Shown: piece by piece, positions 421-26,125 of the stretch
Position numbering within the stretch: the stretch's first letter is position 1
Layout: each line of letters begins with the position of its first letter
Assembly: GCA_038889235.1 (NCBI GenBank)
Contig: JAWAHN010000002.1
Span: forward strand, 284,356-316,355
Length of the DNA: 32,000 nucleotides
Reading direction: 5' to 3'
DNA from: Candidatus Jordarchaeales archaeon
Lineage (GTDB): Archaea; Asgardarchaeota; Jordiarchaeia; Jordiarchaeales; Freyrarchaeaceae
Notes under the pieces: model-generated
Seen by the model: the letters and a program-made list of their open reading frames with translations, nothing else
Told to the model about the DNA's origin: nothing
The model's database searches: none
Program-made: the position numbers and the translations under genes

Positions 421-505
421 GTATTTTGAAAGTATTTTCACGGCGGGGTGCTCGAAGAACAATTCGCTTAAGGCTGAGGGAACCATTTAAAAGTCTCGAA
501 CTTGG

Positions 506-536
506 ATTTAAGGTTAGAGGGGTTTTAACCTTGAAT
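506..536 (+). promoter_or_regulatory. Hairpin enclosing the SD and pairing the TTG start of nop5
   Basis: ATTTAAGGTTA (506-516) pairs with TAACCTTGAAT (526-536): 11 bp with one G-U. The loop GAGGGGTTT contains the SD. Confidence 0.45.
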
Positions 537-1730
537 GTTTACCTTGTTAGTTGCATTTCGGGCGTTTTTGCGCTGGACGAGTCCGGGAATATATTGAGCT
601 TTTCGCTCACACCAGCTAGAGACGAAGAAGTAGCAGAGCGTCTATATGCACTGCAGAAAGGCGAGCTGACTCCCGAACTGAAAGAAGTAGTTGAATCACT
701 GGGTCAAGGGAACACGTATATAGTGGAGGACAGGCAAATCGGTGAAGCTCTAAAAAACAGCTTCAATGTCGAAGTGAAGGTTGAAAAGGGGAATGGCGTA
801 GCACGCCTTTTCAGGTCCCGCATTCGCGAGTACCTCGAAAAGGTTGGATTTACTCCGTCGGAAGAAGAGATTAAAGAGTTGACGAAACGCGCATCGTTAA
901 TATTGGCTCGTAGGAAAGTCAAGGAAGTCGGTAGCCGGAGGGATGAGCACCTAATACAGGCAGTGTACTGCCTTGACGATATAGAGGAAGTCTTAAATCT
1001 ATTCTCTATAAGAATCAGAGAATGGTACAGTCTAAACTTTCCAGAGCTTACCCGATTACTACAGTCTCACTTGTCATATGTACGAATAGTGGGCGAGCTT
1101 GGACCTAAAGAGGAAATAACGAGGGAGGATCTCTCAGAAAAACTAAACTTCCCGCCGGAAATCGTGGAAAACGTGATGGATGAAGTTTCTAGGTCTATGG
1201 GGGCTCCTATCTTAGAGGACGACTTCAAACCCTTAAGAGAGCTTGCCTCGATAACCCTAAACTTATTCGAGTTCAGGGACCTACTGAGAAACTACATTGC
1301 GAGCCTGATGCAGGAGATTGCACCCAACCTCACGGCTATCGTGGGACCCCTAGTAGGTGCCCGCTTAATATACCTCGCAGGTGGACTCGAAAAGCTAGCC
1401 CGCCTACCAGCGTCCAAGATACAAGTGCTAGGTGCGGAAAAAGCACTCTTCCGCAGCTTAACTATAGGTACACCGCCGCCTAAACACGGCGTCTTGTTCA
1501 GACATCCTGAAGTGAGCGGTTCTCCATGGTGGCAGAGGGGGAAGGTAGCGCGGGTTTTGGCGAACAAGGTTGCCATCGCTGCCCGTGCCGACGTATACAC
1601 CGGAAACTACATAGGCGATGAGTTACAAAAAGATTTAGAGAGAAAAATTGAAGAGATAAGGAGGAAGTTTGCTGCCCCTCCAGTCGAGAAACCTAAAACT
1701 CGCCCTAAGCCCGTGAAGAAGAGGAGGTAG
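531..1730 (+). CDS. nop5: Box C/D sRNP protein Nop5 (Nop56/58)
   Basis: Nop domain motifs APNLTAIVGPLVGARLI, IQVLGAEKALF and PPKHGVLF, plus a basic C-terminal tail. The start is likely TTG at 531 after GAGGGG (ORF track starts at 426). Directly upstream of fibrillarin. Confidence 0.95.
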   Translation: MNVYLVSCISGVFALDESGNILSFSLTPARDEEVAERLYALQKGELTPELKEVVESLGQGNTYIVEDRQIGEALKNSFNVEVKVEKGNGVARLFRSRIREYLEKVGFTPSEEEIKELTKRASLILARRKVKEVGSRRDEHLIQAVYCLDDIEEVLNLFSIRIREWYSLNFPELTRLLQSHLSYVRIVGELGPKEEITREDLSEKLNFPPEIVENVMDEVSRSMGAPILEDDFKPLRELASITLNLFEFRDLLRNYIASLMQEIAPNLTAIVGPLVGARLIYLAGGLEKLARLPASKIQVLGAEKALFRSLTIGTPPPKHGVLFRHPEVSGSPWWQRGKVARVLANKVAIAARADVYTGNYIGDELQKDLERKIEEIRRKFAAPPVEKPKTRPKPVKKRR

Positions 1731-1731
1731 A

Positions 1732-2430
1732 ATGTCTGAAAGGAAGCCACCTGTGGTAAAACCACACGACTATGAAGGAGTGTATTTAGTTATTTCTAAG
1801 GGTAAGAAGCGGCTTGCCACCAAGAACATATCCCCAGGGTTTAAGGTTTACGGAGAAGACTTGATCGAGTACAAGGGGGAAGAATACCGCATTTGGGATC
1901 CAAACAGGAGTAAGCTTGCAGCCGCCATACTGAAAGACCTCGAAATGCTACCAATAAGGCCGGGTGGCAGAGTCCTGTATCTTGGGGCTGCGACGGGAAC
2001 TACGCCAAGCCACGTTGCCGACATAGTTGGGAGGAAGGGTGTAATTTTCTGCGTTGAATTTGCACCTCGAGCGATGAGAGAACTCGTAATTGTGTGTGAA
2101 AAGAAGGGTAACATGGTTCCTGTGATGGCTGACGCTCGTTACCCTGAAAAATACTCCATGATTGTTGGCGAGGTTGAAACGATATACTGTGACGTGGCGC
2201 AACCTGAACAAGCGAAGCTCCTAGCAGACAACGCCGATATGTTTCTTAAAAGGGGGGGATGGATACTCCTAGCCATAAAAGCTAGGAGCATAGACGTAAC
2301 CAAGAAGCCGTCGGAAGTCTACAAGAAGGAAATAGCGGTTTTAGAGGATAGAGGGTTCACGGTCAGACAAACGATCAGTTTAGAACCCTTCGACCGTGCT
2401 CACTCCATGGTTTTGGCAAAATACTCGTAA
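1732..2430 (+). CDS. flpA: Fibrillarin-like rRNA/tRNA 2'-O-methyltransferase
   Basis: Motifs YRIWDPNRSKLAAAI, VLYLGAATGTTPSHVADIV, CVEFAPR and DVAQPEQA. Begins 1 nt after the nop5 stop. Confidence 0.97.
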   Translation: MSERKPPVVKPHDYEGVYLVISKGKKRLATKNISPGFKVYGEDLIEYKGEEYRIWDPNRSKLAAAILKDLEMLPIRPGGRVLYLGAATGTTPSHVADIVGRKGVIFCVEFAPRAMRELVIVCEKKGNMVPVMADARYPEKYSMIVGEVETIYCDVAQPEQAKLLADNADMFLKRGGWILLAIKARSIDVTKKPSEVYKKEIAVLEDRGFTVRQTISLEPFDRAHSMVLAKYS

Positions 2431-2449
2431 GCCGGGGAGAGTGTCTAGC

Positions 2450-2896
2450 TTGTCGTTTGAACGTTTCATCAGAGCCCTCTGGAAGTCCGAGATACAAAAA
2501 CTCAACGATCACTTACCCAAGGAGTACAAAACGCTCGCCCAGCTACTTAAGGAAGACAATCCCTCCGTCTCAACCGTCTGCGGGGATAAAATATTCCTGA
2601 AAAAGGCGGATCTAGAATACGTGGCTCGCATAGTCCCAGAAAAGTACCACGACAAAATACACCTCCCGCTTACCTTCATCAGAAGGATCGACATGGGAGA
2701 AGGCGTCTACAGTATAGGTGGAGGATTACTCGAAAGGCTCTTAGTATCCTCTCTCTTAAAGGACAAACCCGTTTTCACGGAAAACGAAGATGAAGCGCCA
2801 GAATACGTTTACAGGCTCCAACTTTGGTACCTAAAGAGGAAAATCAGGAGCCTAGTTGTCATAGGCTTCTTTCTACCTAAAGTGGAAGGAATTTAA
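2450..2896 (+). CDS. DUF61 (UPF0216)-like archaeal protein
   Basis: EIQKLNDHLPKEYKTLAQLLKEDNPSV resembles the DUF61 N-terminus. The start is probably TTG at 2450 (ORF track 2396 overlaps flpA). Confidence 0.7.
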   Translation: MSFERFIRALWKSEIQKLNDHLPKEYKTLAQLLKEDNPSVSTVCGDKIFLKKADLEYVARIVPEKYHDKIHLPLTFIRRIDMGEGVYSIGGGLLERLLVSSLLKDKPVFTENEDEAPEYVYRLQLWYLKRKIRSLVVIGFFLPKVEGI

Positions 2897-2901
2897 GGTT
2901 T

Positions 2902-3741
2902 TCATTTTCCAAACCTTCTCTCCCTCATTTGGTAGTCCCTAATCGCTCGCAGCAAGTCAATTTTCCTCACCTCAGGCCAATAAGCGCTGCAAAAGTAGAG
3001 CTCGGAATAAGCCGACTGCCATAGTAGGAAACCAGATAGTCTCTCCTCTCCCGAAGTCCTTATAATGAGGTCCGGGTCGGGTACCCCTGCAGTGTACAAG
3101 TGCTCCTCAATAATTTTTTCGTTTATGTCTTCCACGCGTAGCTCACCGTTGGCAACCTTCTGGGCTATTTTCCTAACAGCGTCAACTATCTCTGCTCGTC
3201 CTCCATAACCTATGGCGACGTTAAGGAGGTATTTATTGTAATCCTTCGTGGCTTCCTCAGCCCTTCTAATCGCTTCTCTAACCCTCTCGGGAAGCAGCTC
3301 AATCCTACCTATGGCTTTAACCCGAACTTTATACTTGTGAATCTCCTCGCTTTCAGCTATCTCATGGAACTTTTCCTCGGCGAGCTTCATTATTTTTTCA
3401 ACTTCCTCTCTTGGACGGTTAAAGTTCTCAGTTGAGAAGGCGTATAATGTAACAATCTTTATCCCAAGCTCCCAACACCACTCCAAAAATTCCCTAACCT
3501 TTTCCGCTCCGTAAAAGTGCCCAACCCAGCTTTCTAGCCCGAGGGAACGAGCATATCTCCTGTTGCCGTCAAGTATTACAGCTAAGTGTGTCGGCCTCTC
3601 CCCACTCATAACCTGCTTCATTAACGCTTTTTCATAGACATAATACACCGCTTCAAGCATCTTAGCGATTATCGGGATCCTCACTAAAGGCACGTTACGC
3701 CAATAGTGAACGAGAAATCTCGGAGTCTTAGATTTGACCAC
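2902..3741 (-). CDS. uppS: cis-prenyltransferase (polyprenyl diphosphate synthase, UppS family)
   Basis: Motifs HLAVILDGNRR, TLYAFSTENFNRP, YGGRAEI, PDPDLIIRTSGEERLSGFLLWQSAYSE and RRFG. Confidence 0.96.
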   Translation of the reverse strand: MVKSKTPRFLVHYWRNVPLVRIPIIAKMLEAVYYVYEKALMKQVMSGERPTHLAVILDGNRRYARSLGLESWVGHFYGAEKVREFLEWCWELGIKIVTLYAFSTENFNRPREEVEKIMKLAEEKFHEIAESEEIHKYKVRVKAIGRIELLPERVREAIRRAEEATKDYNKYLLNVAIGYGGRAEIVDAVRKIAQKVANGELRVEDINEKIIEEHLYTAGVPDPDLIIRTSGEERLSGFLLWQSAYSELYFCSAYWPEVRKIDLLRAIRDYQMRERRFGK

Positions 3742-3883
3742 TTAAAAACCCCCAGAATCGTTAAGCATTTTAAGATAAGATAAATTATCCCCTAGTTAAA
3801 AACGTTCTCATATATACGTTTATACCATTGTCTCATGTAAGCATGCAAAACTTATCTTTAAATCCAACTTTTTAGAAGCTTAA

Positions 3884-4540
3884 TTGGTGGTCTCCTTGAA
3901 CAACTTTGATTCATGGAATTTGGAGAAGGCTCGCTTGGCTGAACAAGCATGTCTACTTCTCTTCCAAATATCCGCTGTGAGGTTCGGCTCATTCAAACTG
4001 ACGTCCGGTAAAACCTCCCCGTTCTACATAGACCTAAGGGTGGTCCCGTCATACCCTAATGTGTTCGAAAAAATAACTGACATGTACGTAGAACTAATTA
4101 GAAACGAGATTGATGCATTCAACAGGATTGCCGGTGTGCCAACAGCAGGACTCCCCATAGCGACACTAGTGAGCTACAAGCTCAAAGCCCCACTGTTATA
4201 CGTTAGAAAGGAGGCGAAGGGACATGGTACCCAACGCATGGTGGAAGGAATACTCAACGAGGGGGAGCGCGTCCTACTAGTTGACGACATCGCAACCACG
4301 GGGTTAAGCCTTCTAAATGCAGCCCAAGCAATAAGGTCCCAGGGGGGAAAAGTAGAACACGCCGTAGTTCTCGTGGATAGGGAACAGGGAGGTGTCAGCA
4401 TACTCTCAAGCAACGGAATCCAGTTACACTCCATAGTTAGGGCGTCTCAGCTCTTTGAGGTACTCCACGGAAAGGGTCTGATAACATTTAAAGATTATCA
4501 GCGAGCCATAAAATATTTAAAAAGCGAGCAACAGTATTGA
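3884..4540 (+). CDS. pyrE: Orotate phosphoribosyltransferase
   Basis: Motifs FKLTSGKTSPFYIDLR, RKEAKGHG and the PRPP-binding VLLVDDIATTGLS. The start may be TTG at 3896 after GGTGG. Confidence 0.95.
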   Translation: MVVSLNNFDSWNLEKARLAEQACLLLFQISAVRFGSFKLTSGKTSPFYIDLRVVPSYPNVFEKITDMYVELIRNEIDAFNRIAGVPTAGLPIATLVSYKLKAPLLYVRKEAKGHGTQRMVEGILNEGERVLLVDDIATTGLSLLNAAQAIRSQGGKVEHAVVLVDREQGGVSILSSNGIQLHSIVRASQLFEVLHGKGLITFKDYQRAIKYLKSEQQY

Positions 4541-4600
4541 TCCCAAATCATAAATCAAACAATTAATCTTGTACCTAATTATAAATTACCGTCAAAAGTT

Positions 4601-4618
4601 TGAGAGAATCTTTATATT
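4601..4618 (+). promoter_or_regulatory. BRE/TATA promoter of the longin-GTPase operon
   Basis: Purine-rich GAGAGAA followed by TTTATATT (4611-4618), about 29 nt before ATG 4647. Confidence 0.55.
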
Positions 4619-4646: not shown

Positions 4647-5759
4647 ATGCCTGAAAGAAACTCGGAGAGTGTAAAGTTGCCCCTCGGAATGATCGTAGTT
4701 CGATGGGATAACCGGCTCGGAGCAGTACTAGAAGCCAAATACCCCCCTCAGCTCAGAGTGACAGAAGACCAGATAATGAAAATTTACACTGCTCATGCGA
4801 TGTCCATCGGTGAAGCTCCTGCAGGCTTCCTCTCACTCAGAGTAGGTGATTTAAACGTCGCATCTTATTATGGTGGATGGGACATAAACTACTACGTTGC
4901 CCTCATTTTAACACCTGAAGAAGATGCTGACAGTTATGAGGACGGATTGACTGAAATCGCATCTTATATCTTCTCGAAACTTGAGGACGAGGCGTATAAA
5001 GAAGAGCTCGAAGAGCTCTTCAACAAGCTAGTGCGCTTCCCCTCATTAACAGAAGAACAAAAAATGGCTGTGGCTCTCTCCGATCCTATTAGAAGGGCTC
5101 TCTTCGAAAAAATGACTGAAGAAGGCAGCTCCACGCTCTCAGACCTTGAAACATGGTTAAAGTACAAGTTCGAACTTAAATCGGTAGAACTCTTCTCCCT
5201 TCTCACCCCTCTGGTCAAAAATGGTCTCATATCCTTACGGTGGGTTGAAGGACTTCCAAGTCAGTGTGCCTTCTTGGTTAGAGACGTTTTCGTCGCTAGA
5301 GTTCCAGCTCGTGCAATAGTTAAGAAGGCCCAGTCTAATGAGTGGGGCGCCGAAGCCTCATCGGAATACTTGGACGAGGTCAAAGACTTCTTTAGAAACT
5401 ATGCTCTTACACCGCAGGACGCAGAAAATGTAATAAAAGTTCTTGCAGACCCAGACGTCTACGACGTCCTTGTATTACTCAGAGAGGACGTCTGCACGTT
5501 TGACAAAATAGTGGAACGTCTCGGAAAGAAGAAGACAGAAGTTGCCAGAGCGGTGAAACAACTGAAAGACTTGAACTTTATAACCGAGATAAAAATAGGT
5601 GGCGAAAAACACCTAGCGTTAAAATCAGACGCTAGAATAATAACGTTCTTCCCAGAATACATGGTCGACCAAATAGCTCTCCAATACAAGGATCAAATAA
5701 AACCACCCAGAATGCTGTTGTGGCATCTTAAAGCATTACGAGACAGCTACTTTATGTAA
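4647..5759 (+). CDS. Hypothetical protein: N-terminal uDENN/longin-like domain plus C-terminal winged-helix-like domains
   Basis: The N-terminal GMIVVRWDNRLGAVLEAKYP has the uDENN-type beta-hairpin pattern. Two ArsR-like wHTH-type segments follow (DPIRRALFEKMTEEGSSTLSDL; DPDVYDVLVLLREDVCTFDKIVERLGKKKTEVARAVKQLKDLNFI). The start is placed at ATG 4647 from TATA spacing. Fold calls are by eye. Confidence 0.65.
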   Translation: MPERNSESVKLPLGMIVVRWDNRLGAVLEAKYPPQLRVTEDQIMKIYTAHAMSIGEAPAGFLSLRVGDLNVASYYGGWDINYYVALILTPEEDADSYEDGLTEIASYIFSKLEDEAYKEELEELFNKLVRFPSLTEEQKMAVALSDPIRRALFEKMTEEGSSTLSDLETWLKYKFELKSVELFSLLTPLVKNGLISLRWVEGLPSQCAFLVRDVFVARVPARAIVKKAQSNEWGAEASSEYLDEVKDFFRNYALTPQDAENVIKVLADPDVYDVLVLLREDVCTFDKIVERLGKKKTEVARAVKQLKDLNFITEIKIGGEKHLALKSDARIITFFPEYMVDQIALQYKDQIKPPRMLLWHLKALRDSYFM

Positions 5760-5788
5760 TAAAAAAACATTATTTTAGGAGATCTTCA

Positions 5789-6643
5789 ATGATAAGGAAT
5801 ATTGAAATCTTTGATGCAAACGGGCGGTTAATGTTCAAAAAGAAGTACGGAACAAGTAACATAGCCGACGATATATTCGACGACTTCATGGCGCACTTTG
5901 CAAAGATGATTTCCAAGGTGAACTTAGACGGTGGAGTTGAATTCATGAACTTGAAGAGGACGCGTCTTTACTACAGCAACTTTGACAAGACAGTTTTCAT
6001 TTTTGAAGCAGATAAAAACGACGACATTAACGAGATGAAGACGAAGATGAAAAACATAATGCAAAACTTCATAGCAGACTATGGAGAGGCTATTCAAAAC
6101 TGGGATGGTGACCCATCGGTTTTCTCGTCGTTTAACGAAAAAGTGGATGAGCTAACAACGACTCTTCTAAAACTTTCACTAATAGGTTTCAGCGGCGTGG
6201 GCAAAACGACAATACTTAAACTCATCAGAGAAGAAGAGCTTCCAAAGGAGCACATACCAACCATAGGCGTTGGCATAAAAGGCGTCAAAGGAGCCATGAT
6301 AGGTAATACGCAGCTCGTCTGCTGGGATCTTGCAGGACAAGAGAGGTTCAAGATGACATGGGACAAATTTATCAAAGCGTCATCACTAATAGTAATAGTA
6401 ACAGACTCAACACTGGAGAACGTTGTGAAGTCGCGCTTTTTCGTGAGATTAGTAAAGGAAGAAGAACCCGAAGCGAACATGGTTGCGCTAGCCAATAAAC
6501 AAGACCTTCCAAACGCACTCCCCCCTGAAAAAGTGGAAGAAATATTAGGAGTGAAAACATACGGATTTGTAGCTATAGATCCTATGAACAAATCAAAGTT
6601 TTTTGAAATAGTTCGAAACGTTGTTATGGGCGTAGTAAGTTAA
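5789..6643 (+). CDS. Longin-domain/small GTPase (Arf/Rab-like) fusion
   Basis: G1 GFSGVGKT, G2 PTIG, G3 WDLAGQERF, G4 NKQD, G5-like VAID. The N-terminal ~125 aa (MIRNIEIFDANGRLMFKKKY...NWDGDPSVFSSFNEKVDEL) have an adaptin sigma/mu-type longin pattern. AGGAG SD. Confidence 0.85.
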   Translation: MIRNIEIFDANGRLMFKKKYGTSNIADDIFDDFMAHFAKMISKVNLDGGVEFMNLKRTRLYYSNFDKTVFIFEADKNDDINEMKTKMKNIMQNFIADYGEAIQNWDGDPSVFSSFNEKVDELTTTLLKLSLIGFSGVGKTTILKLIREEELPKEHIPTIGVGIKGVKGAMIGNTQLVCWDLAGQERFKMTWDKFIKASSLIVIVTDSTLENVVKSRFFVRLVKEEEPEANMVALANKQDLPNALPPEKVEEILGVKTYGFVAIDPMNKSKFFEIVRNVVMGVVS

Positions 6644-6656
6644 AGGAGGAAGAAAA

Positions 6657-6977
6657 ATGGGGTTAGTGGAAAAAGTAAAAGTCCTTTTTAAGAGGCTGAT
6701 TGGCGCGCCACCGACAATACCTAAACCCCCAATAACTCCAAAAGAAGCTGAAGAAATATCCAACCTCAAGAAGGTGCTTGAAGAGCTCAAAGCAAAAAAG
6801 GAAGAAATCAATTTACAGCTTAAAAAACTAGACGCTGACTTTTTCCTAGGAAAAATTGACGCTAAAAAAAGAGACCAAACATACATAAGGCTGATGCAAG
6901 AAACAATGAAAATAAACAGAGAAATCGCTACTATACGCCAACGCATAATAAGTCTAGGAGGAGCGATAGAAATATAG
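6657..6977 (+). CDS. Small hypothetical protein: amphipathic N-helix, Pro-rich linker, coiled-coil hairpin
   Basis: Strong AGGAGG SD, 13 nt after the GTPase stop. Sequence MGLVEKVKVLFKRLIG-APPTIPKPPITP, then two heptad-patterned helices joined by DFFLGKID. Confidence 0.75.
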   Translation: MGLVEKVKVLFKRLIGAPPTIPKPPITPKEAEEISNLKKVLEELKAKKEEINLQLKKLDADFFLGKIDAKKRDQTYIRLMQETMKINREIATIRQRIISLGGAIEI

Positions 6978-7012: not shown

Positions 7013-7567
7013 TCACCCTCTTATAATTCCTTTTTCGGCAAGGATCTCCATTATTTTGTCCACAGCGATGAAAATGTCCTCCTCGCGCTTTGCTCCTGTT
7101 ATGACAGCTTTTCCTGAGCCAAAAAGCAGTATGACTACTTTGGGGTCCTTCACCCTCCAGATTAGTCCTGGAAACTGCTCTGGCTCATAAAGTGTGTTCT
7201 CGAGGAGGAATGCTGCCTCCTCCAGGTTCAGCTCGACGCCCAAGTTTGCTGAAGCCACTATGTTTTGTACTTGGATTATCGGTTCATTTTTGATGTCTAT
7301 TCCTATCTCTTTCAGGTGCTCGATGATTTTTTTGACAGCTTTTACAGCGTCCTTCTCAGACTTGCTTCCTGTGCAAACCATTTTCCCCGAATTGAATATC
7401 AATGTCGCTGTTTTCGGCTGTTCAAGCCTAAGGACTAGCCCGGGGAACTGATCCGGGTCAAACTCTGTGTTAGGTAGTTTTTCAGCTATCAAGTTCAAGT
7501 CAAGTCTTTGGTTTAGCGTTACCGATGCTACAACATTTTCTATGTGAATCGATTTTGCCTTCGGCAT
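7013..7567 (-). CDS. tbp: TATA-box binding protein
   Basis: Two TBP repeats: IENVVAS...[12 protein letters not shown]...[12 protein letters not shown] and VQNIVAS...[12 protein letters not shown]...[12 protein letters not shown]. Confidence 0.98.
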
Positions 7568-11971: not shown

Positions 11972-12376
11972 ATGTCTACCGTCTTTCCTGGGGGTTTGCT
12001 CATCCCAGCTGGAATAGTTATAATCGGTTGGGACAGAAAGTCCGGCGCTGTCGCCGAATACTGTTTTCCTGAATGCCTATCTCTCCCTCCAGATTTCGTG
12101 ACACAAGTGTTCTCAGCACACTTTCAGGGAAATCTAGAAAACTTCACCCCCACAGCCGCTCTCCAGGTTTCAGGTCGAAAAGTAGTCAGCTACCTTGTTA
12201 ACATCGGCGAGAAAAAGAAGTGCTTCGCAATACTCCTTCACAAGGAGGAAAAGACGAACGAGTGGATCGAACCACTTAAAACACTGGCATGCGAGATAGA
12301 AAAAAGAGGTGATTTAAAAGTAATCCCATCGCTTTATAAAAAACTCCTCCTAGAAAAGGGGAAAGCTAAACTGTAA
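11972..12376 (+). CDS. Stand-alone uDENN/longin-like protein, paralog of the N-domain of the 4647 ORF
   Basis: IPAGIVIIGWDRKSGAVAEYCFP aligns by eye with LPLGMIVVRWDNRLGAVLEAKYP. Similarity continues through FSAH/YTAH, LQVSGRKVVSY/LRVGDLNVASY and ILLHKEE/LILTPEE. Alternative start TTG 11996. Confidence 0.7.
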   Translation: MSTVFPGGLLIPAGIVIIGWDRKSGAVAEYCFPECLSLPPDFVTQVFSAHFQGNLENFTPTAALQVSGRKVVSYLVNIGEKKKCFAILLHKEEKTNEWIEPLKTLACEIEKRGDLKVIPSLYKKLLLEKGKAKL

Positions 12377-14264: not shown

Positions 14265-14987
14265 TTACGTTTCACTGAATAATTTCTTCAACCTCTCCAG
14301 TTCAGCCAACATAGCACTTCTCAACTCATTAATCGACAACGCCTCTGAAGAAGGTGTACCTCCCGGAATAGACACAGAAACAGCTGACGGTACTGCAGAT
14401 GGTGCAACAGGCGTTGCTGGCATCGCTCTGGGCGGTGCTGCTGGCGGCGCCGCTGGTGGTGCTGCCGGTGGTGCCTTCGGCGCTGCTGGCGGTGCTGCTG
14501 GCGGCGCCGCTGGTGGTGCTGCCGGTGGTGCCTTCGGCGCTGCTGGCGGTGCTGCTGGCGGCGCCGCTGGTGGTGCTGCCGGTGGTGCCTTCGGCGCTGC
14601 TGGCGGTGCTGCTGGCGGCGCCGCTGGTGGTGCTGCCGGTGGTGCCTTCGGCGCTGCTGGCGGCGCCGCTAGGGGGGTTGTTACCGTGACTTCTTTTGTC
14701 TCTATTAGTGGTGTTTTTTCAGCGCGTTCTATGAACATGTCGAAGACTGTTTCTGGTTCTTTTATTGCGAATGTCTCTATTTCTGGTATTGTTGTGACTA
14801 TTTCTTCTATGGGTGTTGTTTCAATGCTTTTAGCTAGTTTCTCTATTTCTTTTTGGATTTTCTTGATTGAAGTTATGTAGGCATTGTGTATTTTCTGAAA
14901 GTTTGCGAAGTATTTTTCTGATGTACTTATGAGTGATTTGCAAAGGTTGATCATGGCTTTAAGGGCTTTCTCTTCCTTTCTAGGCAA
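14265..14987 (-). CDS. Hypothetical Ala/Pro-repeat protein with N-terminal helical region and C-terminal WH2-like helix
   Basis: TTG start after GAGGGG. Helical N-terminus, T/E-rich linker, (AAPKAPPAAPPAAPPAAPP)x4, then NELRSAMLAELERLKKLFSET. Confidence 0.8.
   Translation of the reverse strand: MPRKEEKALKAMINLCKSLISTSEKYFANFQKIHNAYITSIKKIQKEIEKLAKSIETTPIEEIVTTIPEIETFAIKEPETVFDMFIERAEKTPLIETKEVTVTTPLAAPPAAPKAPPAAPPAAPPAAPPAAPKAPPAAPPAAPPAAPPAAPKAPPAAPPAAPPAAPPAAPKAPPAAPPAAPPAAPPRAMPATPVAPSAVPSAVSVSIPGGTPSSEALSINELRSAMLAELERLKKLFSET
14431..14670. repeat. Four perfect 57-bp tandem repeats plus a 12-bp partial unit, in frame
   Basis: Unit GGCGGTGCTGCTGGCGGCGCCGCTGGTGGTGCTGCCGGTGGTGCCTTCGGCGCTGCT starts at 14431, 14488, 14545 and 14602 with no mismatches. 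Confidence 0.97.
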
Positions 14988-25420: not shown

Positions 25421-26125
25421 TCACGTAACCTTCAGTAGACTGTCAGGGTTCTCCAACGCCCTCTTTATAGGTGGGGTAAGCCAGAATACTCCAGCCCTCC
25501 AGTCGACTTCAACGTACCCCCTTAATTCGAGCCAGTTGAGCACCCTCCTCACAGATGACAGATCAAAGTTCATCATGTTTGCGAAACGACTGATGCCTCC
25601 AGCTTCCCCCTCAAACTTGTTAAGCAGGTTTAACAGCGGAGCTGCTTTTCTTATTATTGACACAAGCAGCAATCTTAACGCATACGGAAGGTTTAACCCA
25701 GTTAAGGCGCTAGTCGCGATTACGGGAACTTCATCTGGGATCCCAAAAACCTTCCTCACCACTTCTGGGGGGCGCGCTCCGTCCAGGTCCTGTTTGTTGG
25801 CAAGATACACGCGCACAGTATTGGGGAGAAACTCGTCCACCTCCCTCATCACGGCAATAGCCTCACCGTCTGATCCGGGGTTAGCGCTATCAATTACGAA
25901 AAGCACTCCGTCAGTTCCTTTCGAGAGAATTTCCCTTAAAATCTTAAAGTGTTTCATACCAGGAGTTCCGAAGAGGTGGATCTTTAACCCCTCAATGTCC
26001 GTTCTTCCGTAATCTAGGGCGACAGTGGTTCCATGTTTATCCACATGAATACTTTTCCCGCCTGAAAGGAACCTCACAATATTAGACTTACCCGAATGGT
26101 GTCCTCCAACAACCAGCACTTTCAA
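25421..26125 (-). CDS. MglA-like small GTPase with C-terminal winged-helix-like extension
   Basis: G1 GGHHSGKS, TTVALDYG, G3 GTPG, G4 NKQD, G5 SAL. The tail ISRFANMMNFDLSSVRRVLNWLELRGYVEVD...VFWLT is wHTH-like. Confidence 0.8.
   Translation of the reverse strand: MKVLVVGGHHSGKSNIVRFLSGGKSIHVDKHGTTVALDYGRTDIEGLKIHLFGTPGMKHFKILREILSKGTDGVLFVIDSANPGSDGEAIAVMREVDEFLPNTVRVYLANKQDLDGARPPEVVRKVFGIPDEVPVIATSALTGLNLPYALRLLLVSIIRKAAPLLNLLNKFEGEAGGISRFANMMNFDLSSVRRVLNWLELRGYVEVDWRAGVFWLTPPIKRALENPDSLLKVT

Follow-up and report, generated by a model that had tools for sequence, protein, structure and literature searches.

Asgard archaea, the group closest to the ancestors of eukaryotes, encode many small GTPases and longin-domain proteins, and almost none of these has an assigned partner. 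A gene at 4647-5759 (+) in a 32,000-nucleotide stretch of a Candidatus Jordarchaeales genome (GCA_038889235.1, contig JAWAHN010000002.1, positions 284,356 to 316,355 of the forward strand; this whole stretch is called the window, and its numbering is used below) raises the question of what a longin domain joined to two winged-helix units does beside a small GTPase. An earlier note, made from the letters alone, had compared its product with NPRL2 and NPRL3, subunits of GATOR1, or with a longin sensor that links GTPase state to transcription. We found that the protein is a rigid longin plus duplicated winged-helix member of an Asgard-wide family, and its gene appears to head a three-gene operon with an Arf-like GTPase and an amphipathic-helix protein. 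The account that we modestly favour casts the protein as a non-catalytic adaptor that regulates a membrane-bound switch built on a small GTPase, and we infer its binding steps.

The AlphaFold2 model of the adaptor, built from a 94-row alignment, reached a predicted local distance difference test (pLDDT) score of 94.8 and a predicted template modelling (pTM) score of 0.88. It consists of a five-stranded longin domain of the uDENN/NPRL type (residues 11-133; 4677-5045 (+)) and two winged-helix units, and the C-terminal half, which holds these two repeats, is modelled with a pLDDT of 96.7. Aligned with each other in hhalign, the two units match with a probability of 98% and E 2e-13, which marks them as an internal duplication. 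Repeat 1 (5046-5405 (+)) runs through a helix, a winged helix, a long strand with the near-invariant R218-x-P220 and two helices, and repeat 2 (5406-5756 (+)) through a helix, an ArsR-fold winged helix with the conserved L278-R279, a long strand carrying FFPEY and two helices. R218 (conserved in 95%) and R279 (89%), one in each repeat, belong to the best conserved residues of the family. The longin domain is strongly acidic, with a net charge of -11 (family mean -8.5).

The open reading frame can be regarded as a real gene because 15 relatives match it at 64-100% identity and 397 cluster representatives match the family (E<=1e-3); close relatives are labelled Jordarchaeum, Freyarchaeum and Jordarchaeales. 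The motifs listed in the earlier note all lie where it had placed them, namely WDNRLGAVLEAKYP at 4704-4745, YYGGWDINYY at 4866-4895, winged-helix segments starting with DP at 5082 and 5448, FFPEY at 5646-5660 and HLKALRDSY at 5724-5750, and only its start codon had to be corrected. ATG 4647, which would give 370 residues, is unconserved in four close relatives, one of them with an additional base between this ATG and the conserved frame, while GGAG at 4664-4667 and the codon at 4677 are kept; one relative reads ATG at 4677, and most relatives start with M-P-x-G at this position. We therefore rejected ATG 4647, and the start is most likely TTG 4677, with the conserved GGAG (+) as a ribosome-binding site 9 nucleotides 5' of it, so that the gene covers 4677-5759 (+) and probably encodes 360 residues. 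Residue numbers are counted from ATG 4647 throughout, and residues 1-10 of this numbering have a pLDDT of 58. Upstream, a block at 4599-4617 (+), made of a TATA-like TTTATAT (4611-4617) and a purine-rich element before it, stays nearly invariant in five Jordarchaeales loci while its flanks diverge, and we infer that it acts as an archaeal promoter; a promoter scan with the sigma-70 model, which is unsuited to archaea, gave results at chance level.

The second gene of the predicted operon (5789-6643 (+)) encodes a longin-fused Arf-like GTPase of 284 residues with a P-loop, DLAGQ and NKQD (Pfam Arf, E 7e-24), in which the catalytic Gln of DLAGQ is invariant in the alignment and the N-terminus is a longin, not the amphipathic helix of Arf. 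The third gene (6657-6977 (+)), preceded by an AGGAGG site, encodes a 106-residue protein with an MG-started amphipathic helix, a Pro-rich linker and a helical hairpin; it belongs to no Pfam family and is a candidate membrane anchor. The intergenic gaps are 29 nucleotides between adaptor and GTPase and 13 nucleotides between GTPase and 106-residue protein, with ribosome-binding sites, and the trio is kept in all Jordarchaeia loci with enough sequence. A metatranscriptome contig from a relative with 97% identity extends over 4682-6928 and not upstream of it, in keeping with a single transcript without proving it; three raw-read RNA runs contained 0-2 reads each, which is no test of expression. 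One locus with an 80% identical gene and the same operon (L071, JAPDJY010000037.1) carries a Thermoproteota label and probably comes from a mislabelled Jordarchaeia genome.

Across Asgard genome families, given here as f-numbers (f9 is Loki-type, f3 Odin, f5 includes Heimdallarchaeum aukensis and f16 Borrarchaeum), the 15 GTPases that adjoin family members (f1, f2, f7, f8, f11, f12, f13 and f15) all fall into one Arf-like clade with support of 99/98, which is separate from the Rab-, Rag- and MglA-like paralogues and includes two further paralogues of this genome. The 106-residue protein adjoins the family gene in f1, f2, f6, f13 and f20, with extended forms in f8 and f15, and in f20 and f6 it follows the family gene even without a GTPase.

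The beta1-beta2 hairpin W20-D21-x3-G25...P33 (4704-4745 (+)) is the best conserved part of the adaptor longin, with W20 kept in 90%, D21 in 81%, G25 in 95% and P33 in 99%; WD occurs in 66 of 88 members and WN in 9, and a Pro follows the hairpin Gly (the GP motif) in 12 of 88 (14%), this protein having GA. It has been reported that C9orf72 requires W33-D34 for GTPase-activating protein (GAP) activity on Arf, that G38-P39 come next, that the arginine is supplied by its partner SMCR8, whose R147 is the arginine finger, and that NPRL3 and FNIP2 also have no GP motif (PMC12290439). The spacing W33-D34...G38 of C9orf72 is identical to W20-D21...G25 here, and this likeness was missed by the earlier note, as were the links to the Arf-like clade and to the surface-protein tails described below. 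The beta4-beta5 region (4866-4895 (+)) holds a short loop, GGWDIN, which in the family alignment is six residues long in 56 of 88 members and contains an Arg anywhere in only 15%, so the earlier remark that YYGGWDINYY has no Arg is borne out. We equate this loop with the one that carries R78 of NPRL2, which we take to be an arginine finger. By analogy with C9orf72, the W-D-x3-G longin would thus be GTPase-contacting and non-catalytic. The same W-D-x3-G-A hairpin is found in a stand-alone longin of 134 residues at 11972-12376 (+) in the window (E 1e-19 to the family longin profile), which has no winged helices and no Arg finger and is a possible dimer partner of the adaptor. On another contig of the genome (C1), two longins have a true GP (FDYKLGP at L124:6544-7185 and FDYIVGP at L124:7784-8458) and no visible arginine finger, and they adjoin two KaiC-like ATPases, another longin and a roadblock protein.

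A second context, as strong as that of the GTPase, is formed by giant single-pass surface proteins, which family members adjoin in f3, f7, f9, f13 and f23. Nine proteins carry the longin plus winged-helix unit as their own cytoplasmic end, about 105 residues after a single transmembrane helix, and fused and separate surface proteins have in common a homologous juxtamembrane tail that starts with I-P-x-F-V-K-K (E down to 1e-19). Surface protein, family gene and GTPase stand in one locus in L107, L109 and L111. The present genome has one full-length family member and three unlinked surface proteins (L121:8512-12810, L122:7655-11608 and L123:7597-10656) with the conserved tail (E 2e-4 to 7e-4) directly after the transmembrane helix. 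In Odin, Atabeya and f20 loci, the family gene and the gene for the surface protein are often separated by one of unknown kind that encodes 140-160 residues (for example L110:8308-8790, L112:6623-7042 and L114:5783-6211). Other arrangements of the unit also occur: P0134 (from Helarchaeota), P0136, P0154 and P0158 have the winged-helix pair without the longin, behind another N-terminus that by eye resembles helix-hairpin-helix repeats, and in P0070 and P0101 the whole unit is fused ahead of SIR2-like and TPR domains (Pfam matches shown for P0070, from Helarchaeota).

In the mechanism that we favour, the adaptor longin would pair with the longin of the GTPase itself, like the longins of NPRL2/NPRL3 and C9orf72/SMCR8, so that the W-D-x3-G hairpin is laid on the G domain, and the adaptor would position the GTPase or tune its nucleotide state without giving a catalytic residue. 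The winged-helix pair would be a protein-docking platform, docked on the membrane anchor. Because the GTPase is without the membrane helix of Arf, the adaptor-GTPase pair may reach the membrane via the 106-residue amphipathic protein, the surface-protein tails or both. The net effect could be that of a GAP co-factor, an exchange factor or a plain tether. A complex prediction for the adaptor and the GTPase with GTP and Mg, run with three controls, gave weak support: the interface score ipSAE (interaction prediction score from aligned errors) was 0.33, the best of the three controls having 0.00, and the runs agreed in at least 84% of contacts with a partner pLDDT of at least 85. The ipSAE mark is reached by 58 of 80 solved pairs and 2 of 110 mismatched ones, but of the pairs that reach it with 0.60 or less only 7 are solved, and both mismatched ones are among them. 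A resemblance to longin complexes of solved structure may also be behind the score, and the prediction shifts the odds just a little.

Several observations weigh against this mechanism. The complex score is barely above the mark, in a range where passes are mostly wrong unless the pair was likely beforehand. The Loki-type (f9) and Odin (f3) loci examined have no adjacent GTPase of the Arf-like clade, and the surface-protein genes of this genome lie apart from the adaptor gene. Most members do not have the Pro of the GP motif; no SMCR8-like catalytic partner was identified, and no arginine-finger longin is among the four related longins of this genome, so that a catalytic partner is missing. 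Finally, the winged-helix pair is arranged like tandem ArsR proteins (TM-score 0.52-0.54).

These points give room to other explanations. The protein could chiefly be a cytoplasmic adaptor of the giant surface proteins, active in their anchoring, sorting or assembly, with the GTPase co-regulated in the same pathway and untouched directly. The in-frame fusions and the tight adjacency to tail-bearing proteins argue for this, as do the multi-copy expansion of the family beside tail-bearing genes in f9 and the three tail-bearing proteins encoded here. We nevertheless consider it unlikely, in view of the single GTPase clade linked in eight families, the operon here, which joins the gene to that of the GTPase rather than to one for a surface protein, the conserved hairpin that serves GTPase contact in C9orf72, and the predicted GTPase complex, weak as it is beside its controls. 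It is quite improbable that the protein is itself a catalytic GAP, with R23 of the hairpin, R218 or R279 as a non-canonical arginine. R218 and R279 are indeed highly conserved, the R23 position is K or R in 70%, the GTPase keeps the catalytic Gln needed for Arf-type hydrolysis, and the best longin match, NPRL2, is the catalytic subunit of GATOR1; however, the loop that bears the finger in known longin GAPs is short and Arg-free here, R218 sits in a winged-helix strand, well away from the longin in the sequence, and probably has a structural role, and R23 is Arg in only 52%.

The winged-helix fold of the ArsR/SmtB type, present in both repeats, and their tandem-ArsR arrangement suggest a further alternative, in which the protein regulates transcription as a single-chain ArsR-like pseudo-dimer and either a GTPase controls its DNA binding or it is released from a membrane tail. 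We aligned 30 Asgard ArsR proteins to both repeats. The ArsR recognition helix reads S-Q-x-T-I-S-x-H, with 0.13 acidic residues per eight positions, whereas the same positions in the repeats hold about 1.7 acidic residues and no such signature; the net charge of the wing is +2.1 in ArsR and -0.3 and -0.65 in the repeats, and the C-terminal half is net acidic on average across the family. Surface charge was judged here by residue counts, not by electrostatics of the model, and the P values of 1e-11 or lower overstate a contrast that is itself large, since kin are not independent. Because the recognition-helix signature and the basic wing are missing, operator binding by the pair is unlikely, and a protein-docking surface is more likely. 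The longin sensor coupled to DNA-binding domains, which the earlier note had proposed along with a check of surface charge, is therefore not upheld, and given also the nine members fused to membrane proteins we regard a transcription regulator as very unlikely.

The non-catalytic adaptor thus stays our preferred reading, and in it the operon would be a specific, small, thermophile-derived set of adaptor, Arf-like GTPase and candidate membrane anchor. Binding of the adaptor to the GTPase via the WD hairpin would show that the longin GAP complexes of eukaryotes (GATOR1, C9orf72-SMCR8, folliculin) have a non-catalytic half older than eukaryotes themselves, and the surface-protein tails would then provide a path by which the cell surface of Asgard archaea is connected to a GTPase switch. 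Should GTPase binding fail, the family is still among the most widespread unannotated Asgard families. A profile search detected it in 143 of 201 Asgard genomes, among them all 43 of f7 and all 41 of f9; most matches are full-length, several copies per genome are frequent, and the lineages are labelled Jordarchaeia, Odin, Loki, Hel, Thor, Baldr, Atabeya and Asgardarchaeum. No full-length members were found in f5, f16, f14 and f21, and a deeper profile in five genomes likewise found none. Proteins from f14 and f21 group with others that bear Hodarchaeota or Heimdallarchaeota labels; two family-positive lineages also carry 'Hodarchaeota' labels, on which the Nop5 marker tree is unresolved. That the family is absent from Heimdallarchaeum is some evidence against a direct line of descent to NPRL2/3.

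The operon is flanked by housekeeping genes, whose order is kept in close relatives: upstream, from 426 to 4540, Nop5, fibrillarin, DUF61, an undecaprenyl-diphosphate synthase-like gene and pyrE, and downstream, at 7013-7567, a convergent gene for TATA-binding protein. The window also encodes a 234-residue MglA-like small GTPase (25421-26125 (-)) with an unusual P-loop, GGHHSGKS, and a winged-helix-looking C-terminal segment, and a 240-residue protein (14265-14987 (-)) in which an N-terminal coiled coil is accompanied by a long Pro/Ala repeat and by a short helix at the C-terminus, reminiscent by eye of an actin-binding WH2 motif. Pfam matches to MksE, ParE and HEPPP synthase were below the cut-off and were rejected.

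How does the family compare with known systems? NPRL2 and NPRL3 (yeast Npr2/Npr3) of GATOR1/SEACIT have a longin and then C-terminal winged-helix domains (PMC3747258), and the protein here likewise has two of the latter, with a longin closest to theirs. The structure prediction and Foldseek search suggested in the earlier note confirmed both folds, with GATOR1/SEACIT chains as the top 10 matches and NPRL2 as the best structural match of the longin, so the NPRL2/NPRL3-like architecture stands. Common descent of the whole chain is not shown, because the alignments to NPRL2/NPRL3, although collinear, reach a TM-score of only 0.21-0.24 (root-mean-square deviation about 20 A), the C-terminal half alone finds ArsR/SmtB and MarR chains, and there is no Pfam NPR2 match; identity is 7-12%. 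NPRL2/3 were outside the top 50 in both C-terminal-half searches, which does not prove that the folds differ. Neither NPR2 (PF06218) nor NPR3 is among the Pfam families listed for 94 full-length or 100 longin sequences, PF06218 gave 7 weak matches over the 201 Asgard genomes, none above the cut-off and none in this genome, sequence searches of the PDB with full-length and longin profiles returned no NPRL chain, and a search of longer proteins with the longin profile returned Asgard proteins only. In a feature search, an Asgard cluster with 19% NPR2 matches ranked second (0.82), which is a lead only. A link to ESCRT-II was rejected, as its matches were just generic tandem winged-helix ones (TM-score 0.15-0.22). 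Unlike NPRL2/NPRL3, the family has no arginine finger, its C-terminal half is an exact two-fold repeat with ArsR as best match, it is linked to surface-protein tails, and the GTPases linked to it form an Arf-like clade separate from the Rag-like GTPases on which NPRL2/NPRL3 act. A wider view would make the family an archaeal sister of NPRL2/NPRL3, derived as a whole longin plus winged-helix chain from a common ancestor, and at the same time part of a membrane relay of surface protein, adaptor and Arf-like GTPase, a forerunner of the longin GAP complexes of GATOR1 and C9orf72 from a time when neither the arginine finger nor the Rag substrate had been fixed; we regard this combination as doubtful.

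Asgard NPRL2-like longins have been published (10.1101/2020.10.19.343400; PMC9834061). The text of the former describes Asgard NPRL2-type longins as abundant, with one family NPRL2-like in domain organisation and present in most Thor and a few Loki genomes, a narrower range than that of the family here; neither repeated winged helices nor an operon with an Arf-like GTPase nor a connection to surface proteins is named in it. The main text of a structure-based Asgard survey (10.1101/2024.07.03.601958) mentions no NPRL, GATOR or longin. A literature search that left subscription papers mostly uncovered brought up no account of this family with its longin and duplicated winged helix, of its operon with an Arf-like GTPase or of its connection to surface proteins. 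Asgard FLCN/SMCR8-type longins with GP motif and arginine finger have also been reported (PMC12290439); they share the hairpin of this longin subfamily but keep GP and the finger, whereas the family here keeps WD..G, without the finger and mostly without the Pro. Compared with ArsR/SmtB repressors, the DNA-contact residues are replaced by acidic or variable ones, and each chain has two copies with extra strands and helices and a fused longin. C9orf72 differs in having a DENN and not a winged-helix C-terminal part, as well as in the Pro after the hairpin Gly. By sequence, arginine finger and GP motif the family falls outside NPRL2, and it would work like the C9orf72/NPRL3 half of a longin GAP complex.
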